NCBI GenBank assembly: GCA_017856055.1
Contig: JAFMFP010000003.1
Location: forward strand, 1-48,180
Length of the DNA stretch: 48,180 bases
Direction of reading: 5' to 3'
From: Fidelibacterota bacterium
GTDB taxonomy: Bacteria > Fidelibacterota > Marinisomatia > Marinisomatales > Marinisomataceae
Under the pieces are notes generated by a model. It had not been told where the DNA came from. It searched no databases and saw only the letters and a program-made list of their open reading frames with translations. Numbering within the stretch: position 1 is the first letter of the stretch; each line of letters begins with the position of its first letter. The position numbers were made by a program, and so were the translations under genes. Of this stretch, positions 24,516 to 36,603 are shown piece by piece.

Positions 24516-25107
24516 TTTCAATAGGGGGATTATTTACAAGATATAGTTCTGGGTTTGTTTCTAAGGACCTTCTATAGTAATCAAATTTTTTACCAGTTCC
24601 TTTCCAATTTTCTTCTTGATAAATAATCTTAATTGAAGAATCTTTATTATTCACAACTCCAGACTTAATATGACCGGATATGAATTGAAAATTCCTCCTA
24701 TTTTTTGCCCAGCTGAGATAGACTCTTTTGAGCATTTTAGCATATCCATTTGATTTATATTTTTCCATAATAACAAATGCATACGTATATAAAGTAGTTC
24801 CCTTTCCATAAAATTCATCTCTGAAAACCCATTGTTGATTTTCAAGACTCTCCAAAGGAATTCCAATAATAAATCCAATAATTTCTCCTTGATATCTAGC
24901 AACAAATGGTAAAGATTTTTCGGTGTTGAAATATTTTCGAATTGTATCTTTAGTCAAGATTGCCTCTCTTCCAAATTCTTTAGCTAGATGTAGAGAAATT
25001 TCAATCAGTTTGGGAAAATCATTTTTTCCAATCGATTCAATTTTTTCAATTTTAAAGACATTGGTTTCAGCGATAACTTTTGTAATTGATTCATTTAAAT
25101 AATCCAT
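24505..25107 (-). CDS. hypothetical protein, probable GNAT fold
   Basis: FVARYQGEIIGFIIG and LYTYAFVIMEKYKSNGYAKML resemble GNAT beta4/motif A. Confidence 0.6.
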   Translation of the reverse strand: MDYLNESITKVIAETNVFKIEKIESIGKNDFPKLIEISLHLAKEFGREAILTKDTIRKYFNTEKSLPFVARYQGEIIGFIIGIPLESLENQQWVFRDEFYGKGTTLYTYAFVIMEKYKSNGYAKMLKRVYLSWAKNRRNFQFISGHIKSGVVNNKDSSIKIIYQEENWKGTGKKFDYYRRSLETNPELYLVNNPPIETTF

Positions 25108-25181
25108 AGTGAGATTTTAAAAAAATAAATTTTTCTGATGAAGATATTTGTTTGGTGAACGTAAATAATTAACTTCACACA

Positions 25182-25943
25182 ATGAATTCATATAAAGAAA
25201 AACTTTCTCATTTCATCAAAAAAAATAATTCAAATCTTTGTATTGGTATTGATATAGATAAACAATTCCTTCCTAAAAATTCTTCATTAAAAAATTTGAT
25301 TGAATATTCATTTTCCGTTGTAGATCAGACTCGAGAATTTTGCGTTGCCTATAAACCGAACTTGGCTTTTTTTGAAGAATGGGGTTCAGAAGGTTTTATT
25401 TGGTTGGAAAATTTGCTTAAGCATATTGGAGATCAACATATCATAATATGTGATGCTAAAAGAGGAGATATTGGCAATACTGCAAAGCATTATGCTAATG
25501 CATATTTTGAAACGTTTGGTTTTGACGCTATAACATTAAATCCTTATTTAGGAAGTGATTCTTTACTTCCGTTTTTACAATTTCCAAATAAAGGAATTTA
25601 TGTCCTATGTCAAACTTCTAATAAAAGTGCCCCTCAACTTCAACAGAATACTTCCAGTAAAGTGATTGAAATTTGTGAAGAACTAGACAATAATAACATT
25701 GGTCTTGTTGTTGGAGCAACTAATTCTGAAGGAATGAAAAGTATTCGAACTAAAACTAAACTTCCATTTTTAATACCTGGAATAGGGGCTCAAGGAGGAA
25801 ATTTGCAAGAAATAATTTCAATTAATAAAGAATTTAAATTTGAAACAATCATTAATGTTTCTCGAGCAATTATTTTCTCTGAATCGATCAGCTCAACAGC
25901 AGAACAATATAATAATATGATCAATGAATTTTATGAAAATTGA
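25182..25943 (+). CDS. pyrF: orotidine-5'-phosphate decarboxylase
   Basis: YKPNLAFF, DAKRGDIGNT and LIPGIGAQGG motifs. Confidence 0.96.
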   Translation: MNSYKEKLSHFIKKNNSNLCIGIDIDKQFLPKNSSLKNLIEYSFSVVDQTREFCVAYKPNLAFFEEWGSEGFIWLENLLKHIGDQHIIICDAKRGDIGNTAKHYANAYFETFGFDAITLNPYLGSDSLLPFLQFPNKGIYVLCQTSNKSAPQLQQNTSSKVIEICEELDNNNIGLVVGATNSEGMKSIRTKTKLPFLIPGIGAQGGNLQEIISINKEFKFETIINVSRAIIFSESISSTAEQYNNMINEFYEN

Positions 25944-26502
25944 TTTCGAAAAAATATTTATTGAAACTGAGGCATTAATGCGCGGACACTTTATTCTTTC
26001 TTCAGGGAAACATAGCGATACATATTTTCAATGCGCAAAAGTTTTACAATATCCAAAATATCTTAATCTTTTTGCCCAGGAACTTTATAAAAAATTTGAA
26101 AACTTGAATTTTGACAAAGTTATCTCTCCAGCTATTGGTGGTATTGTTTTAGGTACAGAAGTAGGAAGAAGGTTTGATAAAAGAACAATTTTCTGCGAAC
26201 GTGAGTCTGGGAAAATGAGTCTTCGAAGAGGTTTTTCAATTGAAAGGGGAGAAAAAATTTTGATAATTGAAGATGTGCTAAGTACTGGAGGGTCTATTCA
26301 GGAAGTAATAAAGTTGATAAATTCTATAGGAGGTGAGGTCGTTGGAATAGGAGTTATCGTCGATAGATCTTTAATGCCAATCCATCTTCATGAGAACTTT
26401 CAATCGCTTTGCAAACTGAAAGCGCAAATTTTTGAAAAAGAGAATATTCCCAACTCTTTGAGAAACATTGCCCCAATTAAGCCTGGAACTAATAAAAAAT
26501 AA
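25933..26502 (+). CDS. pyrE: orotate phosphoribosyltransferase
   Basis: GHFILSSGKHS, PAIGG and IIEDVLSTGGS motifs; start 25933 or 25924. Confidence 0.95.
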   Translation: MKIDFEKIFIETEALMRGHFILSSGKHSDTYFQCAKVLQYPKYLNLFAQELYKKFENLNFDKVISPAIGGIVLGTEVGRRFDKRTIFCERESGKMSLRRGFSIERGEKILIIEDVLSTGGSIQEVIKLINSIGGEVVGIGVIVDRSLMPIHLHENFQSLCKLKAQIFEKENIPNSLRNIAPIKPGTNKK

Positions 26503-26508
26503 AAAAAT

Positions 26509-26536
26509 GGGAACTCTTTTTTAAAAAATAGTTTAA
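26509..26536 (+). promoter_or_regulatory. putative ECF-sigma promoter GGGAAC-N16-GTTTAA
   Basis: In the 51-nt gap before the thioredoxin gene; the same -35 hexamer recurs before degP. Confidence 0.4.
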
Positions 26537-26553
26537 AATTAAAGCGGTATTTT

Positions 26554-26988
26554 ATGAAATTTTTTAGATATATATTTTTTATCCTTCTATGTATTCCTCT
26601 CTTTGCCAATGAATGGGTTTACGATTTTGAAGAAGCTAAAAAAATTGCATTGGAGGATGATAAACTTATTGTTTTAGTCTTTCAAGGTTCAGACTGGTGC
26701 TCTCCTTGTATTAAACTTGATAGAGAAATATGGAATAATAATGAATTTAAAAAGATTGCAAGTGAAAATTTTGTGATGTTATTAGCTGATTTTCCAAGAA
26801 AAAAATCTAATGCTCTAAGTCAAATCCAGAAAGAAAAAAACTATTTGCTAGCTGAAAAATATAATCCAAATGGATTCTTTCCATTTGTAGTGATATTTAA
26901 TTCTTACGGTGAAGTTATTGGACAAACTGGCTATGAAAAAATATCTCCTCAGGAGTATGCAAATAAGATTTTAAAATTTAAAATATGA
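26554..26988 (+). CDS. exported thioredoxin-family protein
   Basis: Signal peptide; FQGSDWCSPC active site; DFPRKK and YNPNGFFP motifs. Confidence 0.9.
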   Translation: MKFFRYIFFILLCIPLFANEWVYDFEEAKKIALEDDKLIVLVFQGSDWCSPCIKLDREIWNNNEFKKIASENFVMLLADFPRKKSNALSQIQKEKNYLLAEKYNPNGFFPFVVIFNSYGEVIGQTGYEKISPQEYANKILKFKI

Positions 26989-28163
26989 TTAAAAAATTAT
27001 TTCTTTTTTTAACGGTAATCAGTTTCAACTTTGCACAAGAGATTGTTAAAGATACTGCTTTACTCATGGGAAGTAGATTTGATTTTACAGTTGTGTCAGA
27101 TTCCAAATCTGAAGGTCAAAAGTTTATTAGCATGGCTATTGATGAGATTAGTCGTATTGAAAAGCTTATTTCTTCATGGGATATTAATTCTCAAACTTCT
27201 CAAATTAATAGAATGGCGGGAATAGAACCCGTTATTGTAGACAAGGAATTATTCTACTTAATTCAAAGAAGCAAAAAGATTTCTGAGCTAACGAATGGAC
27301 TTTATGATATTAGTTATGCATCTCTTGATCAGATTTGGAAATTTGATGGTAGCATTACCACACTCCCTTCAGAAGATGTTTTAAAAAAATCTATATCTAA
27401 AATCAATTATGAAGATATCATACTTGATGATAAAAACTATAGCGTTTTTCTCAAAAATGAAGGTATGAAAATTGGATTTGGTTCTATCGGAAAGGGATAT
27501 GCTGCTGATAAAGCAAAAGAATTGTTAATTCAAAATGGCGTTCAATCTGGGATAATCAATGCCTCAGGCGATATCGCTGCTTGGGGACATCAGCTCAATG
27601 GTGAAGAATGGCTTATTGCAATCAAAAATCCTTTCAATAAAAATAAAATTTTTTCATGGCTTCCTATTGAAAACAAATCAATCGTTACCTCAGGTGATTA
27701 TGAAAAATTTATTATGATAGAAGGTGAGAGATTTTCTCACATTATCAATCCTAAAACTGGGTATCCCGTCAAAGGTTTAACAAGTGTAAGTGTCATAGCT
27801 CCAACAGCAGAGATTGGAGATGCTTTAGCTACAGCAGTTTTTATATTAGGTAAAAACGATGGTCTGAAATTAATTAATTCATTGCCTGAAATAGAATGTT
27901 TAATAGTTGATTCGGATGGAGAATTTTATCCCTCAGATAATTTAGCTTTCAAAAAAGATAGTAATAACTATAAAAATTTGAAAAAATCTTTGTCAAAAAC
28001 ACTAACTAGGGTTAAAGAATATGAAAAAGTCTACATTAATGATCCTGATATGGATTTGAATCCTAGAAAAGTGAATAAATTTGAAACTAATTTTCAGGTT
28101 TATAGAGAATCAGCTTCTGGCGCTAATGGGGGAAAATCAGGAGGTGGGTGTGGTTGCAATTAA
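26985..28163 (+). CDS. apbE: FAD:protein FMN transferase ApbE fused to a C-terminal DUF4266 domain
   Basis: LMGSRF, IGKGYAAD, NASGD, TSGDYE, HIINPKTG and DALATA motifs; aa 343-392 VKEYEKVYINDPDM...YRESASGANGGKSGGGCGCN match DUF4266 as I recognise it. Confidence 0.9.
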   Translation: MIKKLFLFLTVISFNFAQEIVKDTALLMGSRFDFTVVSDSKSEGQKFISMAIDEISRIEKLISSWDINSQTSQINRMAGIEPVIVDKELFYLIQRSKKISELTNGLYDISYASLDQIWKFDGSITTLPSEDVLKKSISKINYEDIILDDKNYSVFLKNEGMKIGFGSIGKGYAADKAKELLIQNGVQSGIINASGDIAAWGHQLNGEEWLIAIKNPFNKNKIFSWLPIENKSIVTSGDYEKFIMIEGERFSHIINPKTGYPVKGLTSVSVIAPTAEIGDALATAVFILGKNDGLKLINSLPEIECLIVDSDGEFYPSDNLAFKKDSNNYKNLKKSLSKTLTRVKEYEKVYINDPDMDLNPRKVNKFETNFQVYRESASGANGGKSGGGCGCN

Positions 28164-29610
28164 TCGCCTACTAACTTCAAATTTTATAATCATTTTTTTT
28201 CTTGTAGGATTAAATGGTCAAAATAATGATTCAGTTTTTAAGAAGAATGTACTAGATAATCCTGAAGTAAGTTTTTTAACTAGTTATTATAGCCAAGATG
28301 GTGATCATGCTTCAGTAACTGGAGGAATTGGTACAGAAAAACTAACAGATTTTACTCCAACAGTTATTATAACTATGCCACTTAATCCCGATGAAGTTTT
28401 GACATTTGAAGTTGGAATTTCGGCGTATTCTTCAGCATCCTCAAGCAATGGAAATCCTTTTGATATATCTGGTTCATCTGCTGGCTATGATGATGATGAT
28501 GACTATGATGATGATAATGAAAATTATACTGGTGGTGGTCAAAAAATTGGAACTCCCTGGATAGAATCATCTGGTGCGTCTGCTAGCGATATTTGGTCAA
28601 CTATTGTTGTAGATCATTCAAAATATTCTGAAGACAGAAATCAAATAACTAATAAGAATTTTTCAATTGCTAATGAGTACGATTATAACTCAATAGGTTT
28701 TGGCGGGGGAATCACTAAGCTATATAATCAGAAAAATACTTCTTTATCTTTTGCAGGAAAAATTTTTATTGATAAATGGAATCCGGTATATCCTACTGAA
28801 TTAAAAGCCTATTCTGATGAAAAAGGAGATTTAACTAATGGATATTTTTCTGGTGTAGATATTTTAGATTCTACAGGTCAAAAGTCTACGAACTGGGCTC
28901 CCAAAAATAATTTTAATCTTATTGAAAATGAATGGAGAAACTCATATTCAATTTCATTAAGTGGAAGTCAGATTGTCAATGAGAAATTTCAATTTTCACT
29001 TTTTATGGACCTAGTTTATCAAAAAGGTTGGTTAGCTAACCCTCTACAAAGAGTATACTTTTCTGATATTGATAATTATTACATAGGTAATAGTGAAAAT
29101 ATTATTAACTATACTTCCAAATCTAATACAGATGTGTTTCAATTAGCTGATGATATTGAGCGATTACCTTCTTCACGATTTAAATCTCCCTTTGGATTTC
29201 AATCAAGTTATTACATCAATGAAAAACTTGTTTTTAAAAACTATTTTAGAAGATATCAGGACGATTGGGGTATTACCTCCAATACATATAATGTCGATCT
29301 TCCCATTAAATTAAATGAAAGCTTCACTATATACCCTGCCTATCGAAAATATACTCAAACCAAATCTGATTTTTTTGCTCCTTATGAATCGCATTTATCT
29401 ACTAGCCAATTTTACACCTCTGATTATGATTTATCAGAGTTTTCATCTGAACAATTTTCATTTGGAGTAGGTTATACTGATATTTTTACCAATAGAAAAT
29501 TATTTAACTTAGGTTTAAAGAGTGTAAACCTGAATTTCAGTAATTATATAAGAAGTGATGGTTTAGATGCTTCAATCTTTTCTATTTCTTTTGATTTTGA
29601 GGTGAACTAA
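28150..29610 (+). CDS. DUF3570-family outer-membrane beta-barrel-like protein (putative flavinylation substrate)
   Basis: GTG 28150 behind GGAGG gives signal peptide MVAINRLLTSNFIIIFFLVGLNG; SYYSQDG..AVTGGIG-like segment, SAYSSASS, SSGAS, ERLPSSR, YQDDWG and TSDYDLS motifs; aromatic beta-strand C-terminus. Confidence 0.82.
   Translation: MVAINRLLTSNFIIIFFLVGLNGQNNDSVFKKNVLDNPEVSFLTSYYSQDGDHASVTGGIGTEKLTDFTPTVIITMPLNPDEVLTFEVGISAYSSASSSNGNPFDISGSSAGYDDDDDYDDDNENYTGGGQKIGTPWIESSGASASDIWSTIVVDHSKYSEDRNQITNKNFSIANEYDYNSIGFGGGITKLYNQKNTSLSFAGKIFIDKWNPVYPTELKAYSDEKGDLTNGYFSGVDILDSTGQKSTNWAPKNNFNLIENEWRNSYSISLSGSQIVNEKFQFSLFMDLVYQKGWLANPLQRVYFSDIDNYYIGNSENIINYTSKSNTDVFQLADDIERLPSSRFKSPFGFQSSYYINEKLVFKNYFRRYQDDWGITSNTYNVDLPIKLNESFTIYPAYRKYTQTKSDFFAPYESHLSTSQFYTSDYDLSEFSSEQFSFGVGYTDIFTNRKLFNLGLKSVNLNFSNYIRSDGLDASIFSISFDFEVN
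28486..28527 (+). repeat. (GAT)n low-complexity tract encoding YDDDDDYDDDNENY
   Basis: tatgatgatgatgatgactatgatgatgataatgaaaattat. Confidence 0.8.
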
Positions 29611-31412
29611 TGATAAAAAAAATATTTTATTCTCTGTTATTTTTAACTACTGCCTTTTCTCAATTCAGAGAACCTATCAATATTAACTTTTCTTATAATG
29701 ATAATATTACTTTAGGCGAAGTTGTTGAATTAGAAATAAATATCAGTCTTGAGGAAGGTTGGAAAATATATGCTGTATATGGTGTTGTTGGAGGACCCAC
29801 TCCTTCGAGTATTTCCGTAGATAGTCCTTTCATTGACAAAATTGGAAAAGTAATAGAGCCAATTCCTATCAAGGATTTTGATGAAGGTTTTCAAGTAGAG
29901 ACAAAATTTCATAAAGGTACATTTACTATGATTGTGCCAATTCAAATGTCTTCAAATATTTCCATTGGAGATCAGATCAGCTTTTTCCCTGAATTTGAGT
30001 ACCAAGTTTGCAATGAAACGATTTGTTATCCGCCTAATATTTTTTCTGAAGAGGTAATAATAAGCGTTATAAATGGAAATCCTAACCCTGCAAAACTTAT
30101 TTCGAATTTTGATTTTGATTCAGATTCTATTTTAAATATTGTGGATAATAATATTTTGTCTTTTCTAATTCTTGCGTTGAGTATGGGATTTTTGGCGTTA
30201 TTAACTCCATGCGTTTTTCCGATGGTTCCAATTACTATTTCCTATTTTACTCATAGGGCAGAGCATACCAATCAATCTGCAATAAAAGATGCTACGGTCT
30301 ATATGTTCGGAATTATAGGAACATTTACAGTTCTTGGAATGTTACTCGCAATTATTTTAGGTGCTTCTGGAGCAAATCAAATTGCAGCTAATCCCTATGT
30401 AAATATTTTTATAGCAGCTTTGTTTATTTATTTTTCTTTTTCTTTATTCGGATTTTATGAAATCGAGATACCTGAGAGCTTAAGAAGATTCTCATTACAG
30501 AAAGAAAGCTCTAAAGGCTATTTAGGAATCTTATTTATGGCATTAACATTTACCTTAACTTCTTTTACTTGTACCGTGCAATTTATGGGGCTGATTCTTG
30601 TCGCTGCTTCTCAAGGAGAATGGTTTTGGCCCATTATTGGAATGTTAGTTTTTAGTACTGCTTTTGCATCTCCTTTTTTCTTTTTAGCATTATTTCCAAA
30701 ATATCTAACTCAATTGCCCCAATCTGGAAGTTGGCTCAATAATGTGAAGGTTGTCATGGGTTTTCTAGAATTAGCTGCAGCATTTAAATTTATAAGCAAT
30801 TCTGACTTAGTATGGAATTGGAATATTTTTTCATATGACGTAGTTCTCTTTCTTTGGTCTGTACTTATGTTATTGACTGCAGTTTATTTATTCGGACTAA
30901 TAAGATTTAGACACGATTCCATTCAACCTCTAACTAGTAAAAAAGCTTTGATTGCATCAGTATTTTTAATTTTTTCACTGTATTTGTTCTCGGGTAATTT
31001 GGGATACTCCATTAATGGAACAATTCAATCATATTTACCTCCGAAAAAAGCAAGTTCGAATTTATTATGGGTAAATACCCTTGATGAAGGATTTCAAAAA
31101 GCTCAAGAAGAAAACAAAAATATTTTTATTGATTTTACAGGGGTAACCTGCACCAATTGTCGATGGATGGAAACCAATATTTTTACGATTAATTCAATTG
31201 AAGAAAAATTACAAAAATACGTTTTAGTCAGTTTATATACAGATTCAGGAAAAGATTTTAATCAAAAGAGACAATACCAAATAGAGCGATTTAAAACTGC
31301 AGCCCTTCCTTTTTATGTAATCCTTGATCCTAATGATAATATTATTGATACTTTCCCTGGATTGACTAGAGATAAAAAAGAATTTGAGTCTTTTTTAGAT
31401 AAAGGATTATAA
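29610..31412 (+). CDS. dsbD: thiol:disulfide interchange protein DsbD
   Basis: Alpha domain YQVCNETICYPP; TM domain LTPCVFPM and SFTCT; gamma domain FTGVTCTNCRWME. Confidence 0.92.
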   Translation: MIKKIFYSLLFLTTAFSQFREPININFSYNDNITLGEVVELEINISLEEGWKIYAVYGVVGGPTPSSISVDSPFIDKIGKVIEPIPIKDFDEGFQVETKFHKGTFTMIVPIQMSSNISIGDQISFFPEFEYQVCNETICYPPNIFSEEVIISVINGNPNPAKLISNFDFDSDSILNIVDNNILSFLILALSMGFLALLTPCVFPMVPITISYFTHRAEHTNQSAIKDATVYMFGIIGTFTVLGMLLAIILGASGANQIAANPYVNIFIAALFIYFSFSLFGFYEIEIPESLRRFSLQKESSKGYLGILFMALTFTLTSFTCTVQFMGLILVAASQGEWFWPIIGMLVFSTAFASPFFFLALFPKYLTQLPQSGSWLNNVKVVMGFLELAAAFKFISNSDLVWNWNIFSYDVVLFLWSVLMLLTAVYLFGLIRFRHDSIQPLTSKKALIASVFLIFSLYLFSGNLGYSINGTIQSYLPPKKASSNLLWVNTLDEGFQKAQEENKNIFIDFTGVTCTNCRWMETNIFTINSIEEKLQKYVLVSLYTDSGKDFNQKRQYQIERFKTAALPFYVILDPNDNIIDTFPGLTRDKKEFESFLDKGL

Positions 31413-31441
31413 GGGAACAATTTTAGTTTTAAGTGGTATTA
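31413..31441 (+). promoter_or_regulatory. putative ECF-sigma promoter GGGAAC-N17-GTATTA
   Basis: Immediately after the dsbD stop and upstream of degP ATG 31466. Confidence 0.4.
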
Positions 31442-31465
31442 GTAAAAAATAATTTAGGAAAGACA

Positions 31466-32854
31466 ATGAAGAAAATTTTTTTTGGAATATTAATTATATC
31501 AAATATTTTTGCTCAATCATCCATATTGTCGCAATTTAGTGATTCATTCGCAAATATTGTTGAAGGAGCGAACGAATCTGTAGTGACTATCACCACTACT
31601 AATACCGTTTCCATGAGAGAATATTCTGATTATTTCAGAGGATGGGGAAGATATTTTCCTGAAGAATATGAATCTAAATCATTGGGATCTGGAGTTATTG
31701 TCGATGAAAAAAATGCATATATAGTGACAAATCATCATGTGATTTATGATGAGAGAAACGATAAACCTGTTGATCAAATTCAAGTAGAATTAATTGATAA
31801 AAGAGTATTTAAGGCGACAGTTGTTGGGCTAGATAAAGGATCTGATTTAGCAGTTTTACAAATTGATGCAAAAGATTTAAAAGCTATCAAAATTGGAGAT
31901 TCTGATAAAGTGCGTGTTGGAGAGTGGGTTTTAGCTATAGGAAGTCCATTTAGTGAAAATCTAAGCCATACTGTCACTGGAGGAATAGTCAGTGCATTAG
32001 GAAGAAATAATTTAATGTTAGGTGCAGATACCTATCAGGATTTTATTCAGACTGATGCAGCCATTAATCCTGGAAATAGTGGAGGAGCTCTTTTAAACCT
32101 AAAAGGTGAACTAATTGGAATCAATTCTGCTATCATTTCGGGTAATGGCCGCTCCAACGCGGGGATTGGATTCGCTATTCCAGCTCAAATGGTTCAAAAA
32201 GTGATGAACGATCTGATCGATAAAGGCTATGTTGTAAGATCATATCTTGGAATCTATATGCAAGATATTACAGAGGATCTTTATGAAGCTATGGATCTTA
32301 AAAATAGAACGGGAGCCATCGTCAGCGATATTGTTGAAGATAGTCCAGCAGAAAAAGCGGGTCTTGAAGAGGGAGATGTTATTTTTGAATTTGAGGACAA
32401 ATCTATTACTAATGGTGCTCAACTAAGAAATTTAGTTTCAGGTACTACCCCAGGAACAAAGGTAAAACTAAAGATTAATCGATCTGGTAAGGATAAATAT
32501 GTTTATGTTACACTTGAAGAACGAACAGAAACTCTTTTAGCATCTTCATCATCTAATACATTTAATGGCTTAGGATTAACAGTAAGAAATCTTTCCCAAG
32601 ATATTCTTGATCAATTTAAGATAGACTTAGATATTTCCGATATTAATGGAGTCATTGTAGTTGAAACAGAACAGAATAGTCCTGCTGATAAAGCAGGTTT
32701 AACTAAAGGGGATATCATCTTACGTGTTGGAAGATCTTTAGTTGATGGTCTCTCTTCATTTAAAGAGGAATTGCAAAAGTATGATGAAGATCAAAAAATT
32801 CTTATGTTAGTTCGTCGAGGAAATTCTTCTAGATATCTTACTATTCAGCGATAA
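31466..32854 (+). CDS. degP: HtrA/DegP-DegQ serine protease with 2 PDZ domains
   Basis: TNHHV, DLAVL and TDAAINPGNSGG catalytic motifs; two PDZ (SPAEKAGL, SPADKAGL); signal peptide from ATG 31466 with AGGAAAG RBS. Confidence 0.92.
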   Translation: MKKIFFGILIISNIFAQSSILSQFSDSFANIVEGANESVVTITTTNTVSMREYSDYFRGWGRYFPEEYESKSLGSGVIVDEKNAYIVTNHHVIYDERNDKPVDQIQVELIDKRVFKATVVGLDKGSDLAVLQIDAKDLKAIKIGDSDKVRVGEWVLAIGSPFSENLSHTVTGGIVSALGRNNLMLGADTYQDFIQTDAAINPGNSGGALLNLKGELIGINSAIISGNGRSNAGIGFAIPAQMVQKVMNDLIDKGYVVRSYLGIYMQDITEDLYEAMDLKNRTGAIVSDIVEDSPAEKAGLEEGDVIFEFEDKSITNGAQLRNLVSGTTPGTKVKLKINRSGKDKYVYVTLEERTETLLASSSSNTFNGLGLTVRNLSQDILDQFKIDLDISDINGVIVVETEQNSPADKAGLTKGDIILRVGRSLVDGLSSFKEELQKYDEDQKILMLVRRGNSSRYLTIQR

Positions 32855-32863
32855 CTAATCAAA

Positions 32864-32892
32864 TTGCAATAGTTCTTCATTTCTAATAAGTT
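32864..32892 (+). promoter_or_regulatory. putative sigma70 promoter (TTGCAA-N17-TAAGTT) for ileS, likely leaderless
   Basis: -10 box ends 7 nt before ATG 32900; no SD. Confidence 0.55.
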
Positions 32893-32899
32893 CTGACTT

Positions 32900-35800
32900 A
32901 TGAGTATTAAGAAAGAACAGCCAAAAATCAATTTTGTTCAAAATGAACATGATGTTCTTTCTTATTGGTCTAAACATCAAGTGTTTCAGAAACTCAAAGA
33001 GAAAAATTCCAATGGTCCTAAGTGGAGTTTTTTAGATGGTCCGATCACTGCTAATAATCCTATGGGTGTTCATCATGCCTGGGGTAGAAGTCTTAAAGAC
33101 TTGTATCAAAGATACAAGGCAATGAATGGATTTAATCTCCGTTATCAAAATGGATTTGATTGTCAAGGGTTGTGGGTAGAGGTTGAAGTTGAGAAAGAAT
33201 TGGGCATTAAGTCTAAAAAAGAAGTTGAAGAGTTAGGAATTGAAAAATTTGTTCAGCTATGTAAAGACCGAGTTACCAAATTTGCGAAAGTTCAAACTGA
33301 GCAATCTATTCGATTAGGATACTGGATGGATTGGGACAATTCATACTTTACAATGTCAGAAGAAAACAATTATGCAATTTGGTCGTTCTTAAAAAAATTA
33401 TTTAATGAAGGAAAAATATACAAAGGTTCCGATGTGGTTCCCTGGTCTGGAAGATCCGGTACTTCATATTCTCAAATGGAGATTATTGAGGGAAGAAAAT
33501 TAACTGTTCATAAAGCTGTTTTTGTCAAGTTTCCTCTACTGAATAAAAACAATGAAAGTTTATTAATATGGACTACGACTCCCTGGACTTTGTCTTCCAA
33601 TATTGCTGTCGCTGTAAACACTAAGCTTAAGTACTTAAAAATCAAGACCAGTGATAGCCAAATCTATTACCTTGCTAAAGAAAATCTCAAATATCAAAGG
33701 CTTGGAAAAGAGTTTTCAGAAAAGAAAAATTGGGTTGATGGTATCCCTAAATTGAAAACTCTTGATCAAATTTTTAAAGAGAGAGGTGGATATGAGATTA
33801 TTGATGAAATTGATGGAAGTCAGCTTGTCGGAGAAAAATATTCATCCCCCTTTGACTATATCGAAGCTCAACAAGCCAAAGGAGGATTTCCGCTAGATCC
33901 TCAGGCTACCAATAACAAAAGTGCAATTGATTGCCATCTTATTGTTGATGGTGGTAAAGATTCTGAAGGAAATGATATGGTTGTTGAAGGGGAGGGTACA
34001 GGATTTGTGCATCTTGCCTCAGGTTGTGGTTCCATTGATAATAAACTTTGTAAACAATTTGATTTTGTAAGTATTTCTCCCATTGATAATCAGGCAAATT
34101 TTATTGAGGGGTTTGATTTTATGTCAGGAAAGAGCGTCATAGATAAGGAAGTAATTCAACAAATTATCAATGATTTAAAAGAAAGAAAATTTTTAGTATA
34201 TGCTGAAGACTATCCTCATATTTATCCCCATTGTTGGAGATCAGGAGAAGAGCTTGTTTTTAAGCAAGTTGATGAATGGTATATCAACATGGACTGGAGA
34301 AATCAAATTAAAAAAATCGTGGATGATATCAATTGGATTCCATCATGGGGACAAGACCGTGAACATGATTGGTTGGATAACATGGGAGACTGGATGATTT
34401 CAAAAAAGAGATTTTGGGGTCTAGCATTACCAATATGGACATTCGAAGATGGAAGTTTTTATGTAGTAGGTTCTAAAAAAGAGTTGGAAGAACTTGCCAT
34501 TGAAGGCTGGGATCAATTTAAAGGAAAAACTCCTCATAGGCCTTGGATTGATAAAGTTAAAATAAAGCATCCTCAAACTGGTCTAATTGGTACTAGGATT
34601 CCTGATGTTGGAAATCCTTGGTTAGATGCAGGTATTGTTCCATTTTCTACTATGGGCTACTTTTCTGATAAAGATTATTGGAAAGAATGGTTTCCCGCTG
34701 ACTTTATTACTGAGTGTTTTCCAGGTCAATTTAGAAATTGGTTTTATTCTCTATTAGCTATGTCAGCATTTCTTGAAAATAAAGCACCTTTTAAAACTTT
34801 GCTTGGACATGCTTTAGTTAAAGATGAAAAGGGTGATGAAATGCATAAATCAGCTGGTAATGCTATTTGGTTTGATGATGCAGCTGAAGAAATGGGTGTT
34901 GATGTGATGCGATGGCTTTATGCTAGGCAGCCAGTTGAAAATAATCTGCTCTTTGGTTATGAAAAAGCCGATGAGGTAAGAAAAAAATTAATCGGATTCT
35001 GGAATGTCTATTCTTTTTATTGCACTTATGCAAAGTTAGATAATTTTAAACCATCAGAAGAATGGCTCCAAAAAGATCAATTGTCTTTGCTTGATGAATG
35101 GATTTTATCAAAACTTCATTTATTAATCGATGAGGCAAAACAGGATTTTGAGAATTTTAACGTTGATAAGTTTTTGAAAAAATTTGAGATATTTTTAGAT
35201 GAACTATCAAATTGGTACGTCAGACAGAATAGAAGAAGGTTTTGGAAAAGCGAAAATGATTCTGATAAAATGATTGCCTTTCAAACGCTTTATCATGTTT
35301 TAGTGCATCTTGTAAAAATACTTTCTCCTATTCTTCCTTTTGTTACTGAAAGGATGTTCTTGAATTTAACTTCTCAAGATCCTGAAGAAAATAAAACTAG
35401 CGTGCATCTATGTAGTTTTCCAGAATCCGATAGTAGATTAATTAATTCTCAGCTTGTTGATAAGATGGAGATTTTAAAGGTTATTATTGAAAACGGAAGA
35501 GCGGTAAGAAAAAAAGCAAATATTAAAATCCGTCAACCCTTATCAAGTTTGAAAATTTTTACTAGAAATCAGGATATACATTCATTCATAATTGAACAGA
35601 AACAATTGATTTTAGATGAATTAAATATTAAAGAAATTATTCTTGAAAAAGACGTAAAAAACATGGGAGTATTTAGCATCAAGCCTAATTTTAAATCATT
35701 ATCTCAAAAATTTGGAGATAAAATGTCAGAAATTATTAAGAATATCAATAGTCTTGATTCAAACATTGTTGTACAAAAATATTTTGATGGAGAAGCTTCT

Positions 35801-36187
35801 TTTGAATCAGAGAATGAATTATCTTTTGAAGACATAATTATTGATATTGAAAATTCAGAGTCTGAAGTAGCGTTTTTCTCAAAAGATAATGTTGTAAGCT
35901 TAAATATTGATATTGACGAAGAGCTAATGCATGAAGGGTTAGTAAGAGATCTGATAAGACATGTACAAACAATGAGAAAAGATGCAGAGTTAAATGTCGA
36001 GGATCGAATAGTTATCGGCTCTAAATTCTCAAAGCTTTTTAATGATGCATTATCAAAAAATAAAGAATATTTTATGAATGAAACTTTATGTTTGGAGATT
36101 GTAGAAAATCTAGAAAAATTTACTTATAATTCATCTTTTACTTTAGAAAATGAAAAATTTGAAATATTCATAAGAAAAGCAGATTGA
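32900..36187 (+). CDS. ileS: isoleucine--tRNA ligase, type 2
   Basis: DGPITANNPMGVHH, GFDCQGL, WTTTPWTL, DWMISKKRFWG and EMHKS motifs; 1095 aa with IleRS2-type C-terminus (IKIRQPL, ELNIK, EGLVRDLIR). Confidence 0.95.
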   Translation: MSIKKEQPKINFVQNEHDVLSYWSKHQVFQKLKEKNSNGPKWSFLDGPITANNPMGVHHAWGRSLKDLYQRYKAMNGFNLRYQNGFDCQGLWVEVEVEKELGIKSKKEVEELGIEKFVQLCKDRVTKFAKVQTEQSIRLGYWMDWDNSYFTMSEENNYAIWSFLKKLFNEGKIYKGSDVVPWSGRSGTSYSQMEIIEGRKLTVHKAVFVKFPLLNKNNESLLIWTTTPWTLSSNIAVAVNTKLKYLKIKTSDSQIYYLAKENLKYQRLGKEFSEKKNWVDGIPKLKTLDQIFKERGGYEIIDEIDGSQLVGEKYSSPFDYIEAQQAKGGFPLDPQATNNKSAIDCHLIVDGGKDSEGNDMVVEGEGTGFVHLASGCGSIDNKLCKQFDFVSISPIDNQANFIEGFDFMSGKSVIDKEVIQQIINDLKERKFLVYAEDYPHIYPHCWRSGEELVFKQVDEWYINMDWRNQIKKIVDDINWIPSWGQDREHDWLDNMGDWMISKKRFWGLALPIWTFEDGSFYVVGSKKELEELAIEGWDQFKGKTPHRPWIDKVKIKHPQTGLIGTRIPDVGNPWLDAGIVPFSTMGYFSDKDYWKEWFPADFITECFPGQFRNWFYSLLAMSAFLENKAPFKTLLGHALVKDEKGDEMHKSAGNAIWFDDAAEEMGVDVMRWLYARQPVENNLLFGYEKADEVRKKLIGFWNVYSFYCTYAKLDNFKPSEEWLQKDQLSLLDEWILSKLHLLIDEAKQDFENFNVDKFLKKFEIFLDELSNWYVRQNRRRFWKSENDSDKMIAFQTLYHVLVHLVKILSPILPFVTERMFLNLTSQDPEENKTSVHLCSFPESDSRLINSQLVDKMEILKVIIENGRAVRKKANIKIRQPLSSLKIFTRNQDIHSFIIEQKQLILDELNIKEIILEKDVKNMGVFSIKPNFKSLSQKFGDKMSEIIKNINSLDSNIVVQKYFDGEASFESENELSFEDIIIDIENSESEVAFFSKDNVVSLNIDIDEELMHEGLVRDLIRHVQTMRKDAELNVEDRIVIGSKFSKLFNDALSKNKEYFMNETLCLEIVENLEKFTYNSSFTLENEKFEIFIRKAD

Positions 36188-36195
36188 GGTGTGTA

Positions 36196-36603
36196 TTGAA
36201 AAAGAAATATAGCGTAAAGGAATTAAAAGAATTTAAAGAAAATATTCTTGAAAAAATTTATGAAGTGAATGATCAAATTGAAACTGTTCGTTCAACAACA
36301 AATAATTCTCGAAATATTTTTATGGAAGACAAAGGTGAGGATTTTGATGAGGGAACAGAGTCAAGTGAAGTTGAGAAAAGTTTTTTCCTTATGTCAAGAG
36401 AATCTGACTATTTAGTTAATCTAAAGAAAGCTTTGCAAAGAATTGAAGATGGATCATATGGAATTTGTGAAGTTTATCAAGAAGATCCTGATAAATGTCA
36501 ATGTTTAGAAAAACCATTAATAAGTAAGGAAAGATTAATTGAAGTTCCTAATGCAACAAAGGGTGTACTTTGTAAAGAAAAAAAGAATTTAAATCTAATA
36601 TAA
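36196..36603 (+). CDS. dksA: TraR/DksA family transcriptional regulator
   Basis: Coiled coil with acidic tip EDFDEG; ALQRIEDGSYGIC and ISKERLIEVPNAT motifs; between ileS and lspA; TTG 36196 behind GAGGT. Confidence 0.82.
   Translation: MKKKYSVKELKEFKENILEKIYEVNDQIETVRSTTNNSRNIFMEDKGEDFDEGTESSEVEKSFFLMSRESDYLVNLKKALQRIEDGSYGICEVYQEDPDKCQCLEKPLISKERLIEVPNATKGVLCKEKKNLNLI

Follow-up and report, generated by a model that had tools for sequence, protein, structure and literature searches.

Four genes stand in tandem on the forward strand of a 48,180-nt stretch of contig JAFMFP010000003.1 (GCA_017856055.1), the window of this analysis, which comes from a Fidelibacterota bacterium and has a G+C content of about 30%. 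They encode an exported thioredoxin-like protein, an ApbE flavin transferase fused to a DUF4266 domain in one open reading frame (ORF), a DUF3570 protein and a three-domain DsbD, and they raise the question of whether dsbD forms one redox system with the three genes upstream of it and whether that system is a new one. The original prediction had taken the set for an undescribed system and had held that this operon names the electron source of the module; neither claim can be upheld, since the same system has been in print since 2021 and DsbD was already proposed there as the source (Méheust, Huang, Rivera-Lugo, Banfield and Light 2021, eLife 10:e66878; PMC8238504).

In its main text, that paper defines "DsbD systems" with these same families. 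DsbD is reported in 285 flavinylation clusters, which typically also hold ApbE, DUF3570 (227), a thioredoxin-like protein of PF13899 (183) and DUF4266 (221), and a further 316 clusters are without DsbD. The C-terminal CXC of DUF4266 is described there as possibly redox-cycling, flavinylation of the DUF3570 protein of Chlorobium luteolum was shown experimentally at two [S/T]GA[S/T] sites, and DsbD is proposed to feed a hybrid thioredoxin/flavin system, perhaps for iron assimilation, with VIT1 present in 25 clusters. Full-text literature searches on the families of the system found no later study of it, and a 2023 preprint on sorting signals touches on the neighbourhood briefly.

The locus is very probably a member of this published flavinylation system. 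It has in common with the "DsbD systems" of the main text the five Pfam families, DsbD as the proposed electron source, the C-terminal CXC in DUF4266 and DUF3570 as the substrate of ApbE, whereas it differs from them in having ApbE and DUF4266 in one polypeptide, with the lipoprotein signal of DUF4266 lost, and in what appears to be an imported cassette beside a resident dsbD. The locus thus reveals no new kind of system and adds to the known one a rare fusion and the placement of a probably imported cassette beside a native dsbD. Taken loosely and as a whole, the explanation preferred here, which combines membership of the published system, the imported cassette, an electron path from DsbD to the flavins of DUF3570 and a DUF4266 plug in the DUF3570 barrel, is held with slightly more belief than doubt.

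Gene content of the locus

The gene identities of the original prediction (a thioredoxin with a WCSPC site, an ApbE protein ending in GGGCGCN, DUF4266, DUF3570 and a three-domain DsbD) were borne out by Pfam matches and by the location of the motifs (Table 1). Regarding the thioredoxin, its N-terminus is signal-peptide-like by inspection, its nearest solved chain is 2ju5, named a thioredoxin disulfide isomerase (E 1.2e-15), and it scored 84.2 bits against the NCBIfam model DsbH, under the equivalog cut-off of 190, so that it is related to DsbH and not filed as such. The ApbE part, a flavin adenine dinucleotide (FAD):protein flavin mononucleotide (FMN) transferase by family, matches the solved FMN transferase 7esa over residues 27-320 (E 1.4e-48) as well as 1vrm (E 3.8e-46), and its 122.7 bits against the NCBIfam equivalog PRK10461 lie under the cut-off of 498, placing it outside the E. 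coli-type equivalog; DsbD likewise scored 144.5 bits against PRK00293, under the subfamily cut-off of 330. By these scores ApbE, DsbD and the thioredoxin are members of their families and not close equivalogs of E. coli ApbE, DsbD and DsbH. The cysteines of DsbD number exactly six and form three pairs, 134/139, 201/321 and 514/517, one for each of the alpha, beta and gamma domains. The DUF3570 protein has no cysteine at all, and in an alignment of 41 DUF4266 sequences M21, G53, C54, G55 and C56 are invariant.

Table 1. Positions of the four genes and of their domains and motifs in the window.
Feature	Position	Strand	Details
Exported thioredoxin-like protein, 144 aa	26554..26988	+	Pfam Thioredoxin_7 (PF13899), E 2.9e-14, 53 bits
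WCSPC active site of the thioredoxin, residues 48-52	26695..26709	+	
ApbE::DUF4266 fusion, whole ORF	26985..28163	+	C-terminus GGGCGCN
ApbE (FAD:protein FMN transferase) domain of the fusion, residues 1-322	26985..27950	+	Pfam PF02424, E 1.4e-80, 271 bits (cut-off 25.6), residues 28-307, profile positions 1-266/266
Linker of the fusion, 20 residues, hydrophilic	27951..28010	+	Stand-alone DUF4266 has a lipoprotein signal peptide with lipobox Cys here
DUF4266 domain of the fusion, residues 343-392	28011..28163	+	Pfam PF14086, E 4.1e-18, 66.5 bits; ends GGGCGCN
Cys-Gly-Cys of DUF4266	28149..28157	+	
DUF3570, 486 aa from GTG 28150	28150..29610	+	Pfam PF12094, E 4.3e-29, 102 bits (cut-off 25); frame open from TTG 28081
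Long loop of DUF3570, between strands 3 and 4	28429..28587	+	Candidate flavin-attachment motifs SSAS (residues 94-97) and SGAS (141-144); acidic insert
Three-domain DsbD, 600 aa	29610..31412	+	Pfam DsbD_N, DsbD_TM (PF02683, 90 bits), Thioredoxin_7

Regarding the junctions, all of which had been predicted to be overlaps, two stand as described, namely the ATGA overlap of trx and apbE at 26985, taken from the ORF coordinates, and TAATG at 29608-29612, read directly, by which dsbD starts at the stop codon of DUF3570. The third, an overlap of 14 nt between the fusion and DUF3570 (28150-28163), holds only if DUF3570 starts at the GTG codon, a start that is plausible because GGAGG stands at 28140-28144 and a signal-peptide-like N-terminus follows it. 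A genome-wide count with a crude ORF caller (first ATG taken as the start, roughly 740 called ORFs) found 233 of 569 same-strand neighbour pairs (41%) overlapping and 132 more lying 0-10 nt apart, with a median gap of 2 nt. The overlaps are not above chance in this genome and are weak evidence for an operon. The gene set itself is far above chance, by the recurrence of the order Trx-ApbE-DUF4266-DUF3570 in most of the related loci surveyed, which comprised 72 genome loci and 80 metagenome loci with flanks of 5-7 kb, some on short contigs.

Origin of the cassette and of dsbD

The dsbD gene carries the only DsbD_TM match in the host genome (0.84 Mb in 59 contigs, 95% complete), and DsbD_TM is present in 32 of 36 genomes of the same genus and in 22 of 24 of the same order, many of them incomplete. 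The dsbD region was taken from 12 sister genomes, 11 of which hold both flanks, and all of these 11 loci have the order SSF - GNAT - pyrF - pyrE - ~0.95 kb - dsbD - degP - ileS, their DsbD proteins being 57-67% identical to that of the window and the flanking genes 54-79% identical. The only taxon name among the 120 DsbD homologues listed is that of a metagenome-assembled genome (MAG) of Candidatus Neomarinimicrobiota, which is the phylum Fidelibacterota. Judged by synteny and homology, dsbD is a native core gene of the host genus and not part of the imported cassette. In one sister genome (L093:7254-9057) the DsbD match is split into two pieces, residues 1-149 and 155-600.

Neither DUF4266 nor DUF3570 was found in the 36 same-genus or 24 same-order genomes searched, many of which are incomplete, and DUF3570 was not found in 37 other species of the family, which belong to a single genus. 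The gap upstream of dsbD in the sisters was read in two of the 11 loci and holds a patatin-like gene of 310-311 aa (PF01734, E 5.6e-30), which ends 6 nt before dsbD in sister locus L095; its orthologue is missing from the host genome, where a 30%-identical paralogue is located on another contig. Among the matches listed, the nearest homologues of ApbE and DUF3570 are those of Flavobacteriaceae, with 56-62% and 55-59% identity, respectively. A maximum likelihood tree of 89 DUF3570 proteins (SH-aLRT, Shimodaira-Hasegawa-like approximate likelihood ratio test, support only; midpoint root) included the window, 64 of the 72 genome loci and 24 of the 80 metagenome loci, the latter picked by hand, after eight genome loci with ORFs of <=380 aa or E > 1e-40 had been dropped. 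The window protein groups with those of the fused metagenome loci L103 and L106 (SH-aLRT 99), this group is nested in a set with Mariniflexile, Flaviramulus, Aequorivita and Olleya (98), and that set is nested in turn in a mostly Flavobacteriaceae clade of 68 rows (100). The G+C content of the cassette, 30.4%, is no different from that of its flanks.

It is likely, on this distribution and tree, that the trx - apbE::DUF4266 - DUF3570 cassette was acquired horizontally from a Flavobacteriaceae-like lineage and replaced the patatin gene upstream of the host dsbD; horizontal acquisition would be the most economical reading, the alternative being loss in all other sampled species. The cassette shares its gene order with the stand-alone clusters of Flavobacteriaceae (L010 of Mariniflexile, L014 of Olleya, L011 of Aequorivita), to which its DUF3570 is 57-58% and its ApbE 56-62% identical, and some of these relatives also have the acidic insert of the DUF3570 loop. 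In contrast, the DUF4266 of those clusters is a separate lipoprotein of ~70 aa and no dsbD lies within their flanks of 7 kb.

Regarding the place of the cassette in the host, the genome holds one DUF3570 gene, one DUF4266 and two ApbE genes, the second of which is located on contig C30 at ~3 kb from an FMN_bind match, and dedication of the cassette ApbE to the module is well supported. The same contig has a match to cytochrome c assembly (PF01578) with one in-frame TAG (C30:1484-2062) and a second, intact match (C30:4390-5016). That the cassette is useful to the organism is suggested by its being intact in a genome of 0.84 Mb and covered by RNA-library contigs. The host is a marine bacterium with a very small and very compact genome, and all 37 other species of the family have genomes of 0.4-1.1 Mb.

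The ApbE::DUF4266 fusion and the predicted barrel of DUF3570

Three of the 120 best ApbE homologues listed have ApbE and DUF4266 in one ORF (P0001 with 98% identity, P0002 and P0003 with 58-59%); the fusion occurs in none of the 63 genome loci with the two genes and in four of the 80 metagenome loci (L103-L106, the lineage of P0002 and P0003). It is not an assembly artefact, because another long contig carries it with 98% identity and because an RNA-library contig of run X10, which covers 27755-28108 with no indel listed, spans the linker. Stand-alone DUF4266 proteins are small lipoproteins in which a signal peptide is followed by the lipobox Cys of the sequence S-C-x-x-V-K-E-Y-E-K, and the fused forms P0001-P0003 have instead a similar hydrophilic linker of ~20 residues without the lipobox Cys. 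The similarity of the linker in both fused lineages, together with the DUF3570 tree, suggests that the fusion arose once. The flanks of L103-L105 have almost no homologues in the host genome and gave no redox-related Pfam match.

The fusion would exchange the lipid anchor of DUF4266 for ApbE and so tether the flavin transferase at the periplasmic mouth of the barrel, and it would fix the N-terminus of DUF4266 on the ApbE, that is the periplasmic, side. Its value would be that of a topology constraint, placing the DUF4266 N-terminus on the same side as ApbE and indicating that the lipid anchor may be dispensable. Taken together, the fusions in the family suggest that its soluble parts touch each other as they work. 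The module is also fused in another way in a Puia sp. MAG (L069:5365-6732), in which Thioredoxin_7 and ApbE share one ORF of 455 aa, and a Flavobacteriales MAG (L026:3459-8512) has two tandem DUF4266-DUF3570 pairs after a single Trx-ApbE pair. Docking of DUF4266 on ApbE was considered and set aside: in the AlphaFold2 model of the fusion the ApbE part (residues 21-320) mostly has a predicted local distance difference test score (pLDDT) of 73-98, residues 323-392 are at 24-41, thus under 50, and no confident packing was seen, with five of the 37 alignment rows covering the DUF4266 tail.

The original prediction also took DUF3570 for a barrel, and structure prediction supports this, with candidate flavin motifs retained. 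The AlphaFold2 model, built on an alignment of 44 sequences (pLDDT 86.6, predicted template modelling score 0.83), has 16 long strands in which turns of 2-5 residues alternate with loops of up to 54. A sequence-profile search found no solved relative of DUF3570, and a Foldseek search with the model returned the barrels FadL, TodX, OmpG, OccK, AlgE and PelBC with E 9e-13 to 7e-9 at template modelling (TM) scores of only 0.27-0.40. The prediction for DUF3570 is therefore an outer-membrane beta-barrel with about 16 strands, which can be assigned to no recognised barrel family. The long loop between strands 3 and 4 carries both candidate flavin-attachment motifs and, between them, the Asp-rich acidic insert YDDDDDYDDDNENY (residues 113-126). 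Conservation of the candidate sites is well supported at the sequence level, S95, A96, S97 and S144 being invariant or nearly so in the 44 DUF3570 sequences; the insert is variable and D/E-rich in several Flavobacteriaceae, and many family members lack it. If DUF3570 has the orientation usual among outer-membrane barrels, the flavin loop would lie on the outward or lumen-facing side.

Regarding DUF4266, complex prediction with DUF3570 residues 25-486 and the 57 residues of DUF4266, using own alignments so that calibration is only rough, gave a median score of 0.69 (runs 0.73, 0.69 and 0.62) as compared with 0.01 for the best of three controls. Among solved complexes 116 of 157 attain the mark of the former, among mismatched pairs two of 215. 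At least 64% of contacts are common to the runs, and the pLDDT of the partner is no lower than 62. On nearly all strands the contacts involve every second residue, those with lumen-facing side chains, and DUF4266 residues 15-23 contact strand ends beside short turns, residue 28 lies in mid-barrel and residue 35 contacts residue 47. Binding of DUF4266 to DUF3570 is thus supported by the model, in which DUF4266 is predicted to occupy the lumen of the barrel, rising from the short-turn (periplasmic) side with its Cys-Gly-Cys tail towards the long loops, and DUF4266 is predicted to be disordered without the barrel. This plug-in-barrel prediction is the most useful lead from the locus; it would apply to the whole family and is not stated in the main text of Méheust et al. 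(2021), which has neither "barrel" nor "porin" and whose single mention of the outer membrane concerns TonB receptors.

Proposed electron path and competing explanations

The relay put forward in the original prediction, from the cytoplasm through DsbD, the thioredoxin and the CxC motif to flavinylated DUF3570, matches the evidence gathered here, and as a model it was already published (Méheust et al., 2021). In the form proposed for this locus, cytoplasmic thioredoxin would supply electrons to DsbD, which would hand them to the periplasmic WCSPC thioredoxin. From there they would move to the DUF4266 tail with its Cys-Gly-Cys, lying inside the barrel, then to FMN covalently bound on DUF3570, and last to an acceptor located at the outer membrane or outside it, which may be Fe(III) or some other metal that is taken up reductively. 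The path as proposed, with its thiol transfers, direction of flow and acceptor all deduced, stands about evenly between belief and doubt, and a metal is an improbable choice of acceptor.

A bolder proposal, that DUF4266 is a thiol "wire" through the DUF3570 barrel to flavins on the surface side, hence a haem-free conduit across the outer membrane, and that the portable cassette plugs into the DsbD of its recipient, is speculative and rather unlikely; if it were true, a three-gene cassette from another phylum could run on the recipient's own DsbD. Such a conduit would resemble the porin-cytochrome conduits of the MtrCAB type in its working only, in that a redox carrier is predicted inside an outer-membrane barrel, whereas here the four proteins have no CXXCH, DUF3570 is without cysteine, electrons would be carried by a dithiol and by covalent FMN, and the barrel, of ~16 strands, is not related in sequence. 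Flexible C-terminal dithiol arms beside flavins exist in other proteins, such as the Gly-Cys-Sec-Gly of large thioredoxin reductases and the Cys-Gly-Cys of Erv2p. DUF4266 may be compared with these flavoenzyme arms in its glycine-rich C-terminal tail, its two close cysteines and a possible shuttle between flavin and thioredoxin, whereas its tail and the flavin would be on separate proteins, in the outer membrane, and no homology to them was detected.

Several points weigh against the proposed path and the role of DsbD in it. Experimental support at the level of the family is the flavinylation of one homologue only. Regarding the flavin sites, SGAS fits the published [S/T]GA[S/T] motif and SSAS has S in place of G, the flavin loop is modelled with low pLDDT (47-67), and the topology with long loops outward rests on a general rule. 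The score of the DUF3570/DUF4266 complex is roughly calibrated, and a position of the tail deep in the lumen would make access for a periplasmic thioredoxin a difficulty. Adjacency of dsbD in relatives, on which the original prediction had staked the link beforehand, is mostly absent: dsbD lies within the flanks in two of the 72 genome loci (L029, L057) and one of the 80 metagenome loci (L153), and the fused sister lineage L103-L105 has none within 5-7 kb. Tight junctions are usual in the host genome by the crude ORF count. DsbD probably serves other clients too, because it is the only DsbD of a genome that also has cytochrome c assembly matches, so that adjacency is no proof of its dedication to the module. 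Finally, the RNA-library contigs are assemblies that may include DNA, and they cannot demonstrate one continuous transcript.

Weak phmmer matches of the DsbD query at seven further loci (L035, L043, L060, L067, L149, L150 and L160; E 9e-4 to 3e-5) were thioredoxin ORFs picked up through the gamma domain and do not enter the dsbD counts. In the Mucilaginibacter locus L057 (8118-10293) the N-terminal domain of DsbD is a separate ORF before an ORF with the transmembrane and thioredoxin domains, directly downstream of DUF3570, and L153 is the only metagenome locus with dsbD downstream.

Expression evidence for a link between the cassette and dsbD is likewise limited. An RNA-library contig of run X1 (2636 nt, 11 mismatches) spans 28771-31406 and so bridges the DUF3570/dsbD junction, which is weak evidence for co-transcription of the two genes. 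Some stretches are uncovered by RNA-library contigs, e.g., 27726-28581 in runs X1, X2 and X5. A scan of 25000-36500 for promoters and terminators was at chance (51 promoter-like sites against 52.5 expected, six terminator-like against 4.9), with a consensus that may not fit the phylum. A contig of run X10 leaves the window sequence at 29631, near the dsbD start, with a loose end of 113 letters, and may come from a relative with another upstream gene.

The best surviving alternative is that adjacency is incidental, in that a self-contained import replaced the gene upstream of a housekeeping dsbD and the tight packing of the genome mimics an operon, with DsbD being the reductant or not. This is a minority possibility. 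In its favour, dsbD keeps its position in all 11 sister loci examined, which are without the cassette, the module occurs with no dsbD nearby in 70 of 72 genome loci and 79 of 80 metagenome loci, the other fused lineage included, 316 published clusters are without DsbD (Méheust et al., 2021), and the 41% of overlapping same-strand neighbours would account for the tight junctions. On the other hand, DsbD occurs in 285 of the published clusters, the only DsbD_TM of the genome adjoins the cassette, one RNA-library contig bridges the junction, and landing directly upstream of this one gene among ~740 called ORFs would be unlikely by chance, although this last argument is post hoc. A cassette that is without dsbD in the donor-like clade and sits directly upstream of the only dsbD of its recipient amounts to a natural experiment, which lends modest, post hoc support to DsbD as the electron source of the cassette.

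A second alternative concerns the tail, which may bind a metal (Fe, Cu or Zn) instead of cycling through a disulfide; barrel and plug would then be a gated channel for metal uptake, with the flavin as reductant of the metal and the thioredoxin maintaining the cysteines in the thiol state. The Asp-rich insert between the flavin motifs and the resemblance of the predicted plug-in-barrel to gated channels would fit this, as would the neighbours of the module in some relatives (ferritin in 8 related loci, VIT1 in two, a haem-binding-domain gene in two) and the VIT1 genes reported by Méheust et al. (2021). However, no such neighbour is conserved, the largest neighbour cluster having eight members in eight of the 72 loci and no flanking gene being conserved across the family, no metal transporter stands beside the module in the window by Pfam, and the acidic insert is absent from many family members; the metal hints from neighbours are weak, and metal binding by the tail is unlikely. 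The ferritin-like gene (PF00210) lies ~0.5-0.7 kb upstream of the thioredoxin in L027, L028 and L032 (Aquimarina), and one of the eight is downstream of DUF3570 (L015).

Least probable, and very unlikely overall, is a role at the outer membrane as thiol oxidase or electron sink, in which envelope thiols would reduce the Cys-Gly-Cys arm, the flavin and then oxygen as in sulfhydryl oxidases of the Erv/ALR type: the C-terminal Cys-Gly-Cys arm beside a flavin does resemble the design of yeast Erv2p, and a DUF3570 without cysteine means that its flavin must exchange electrons with the thiols of a partner, but the thioredoxin is most like reductase-type proteins (DsbH-like, and of the Pfam family of DsbD-gamma) and the association in print is with the reductant DsbD (PMC8238504).

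Regarding minor variation of the module in metagenomes, DUF3570 is in two ORFs at L153:9234-10546 and at L160:1386-4681, which may be frameshift or decay, and L160 also has ~1.8 kb inserted between ApbE and DUF4266.

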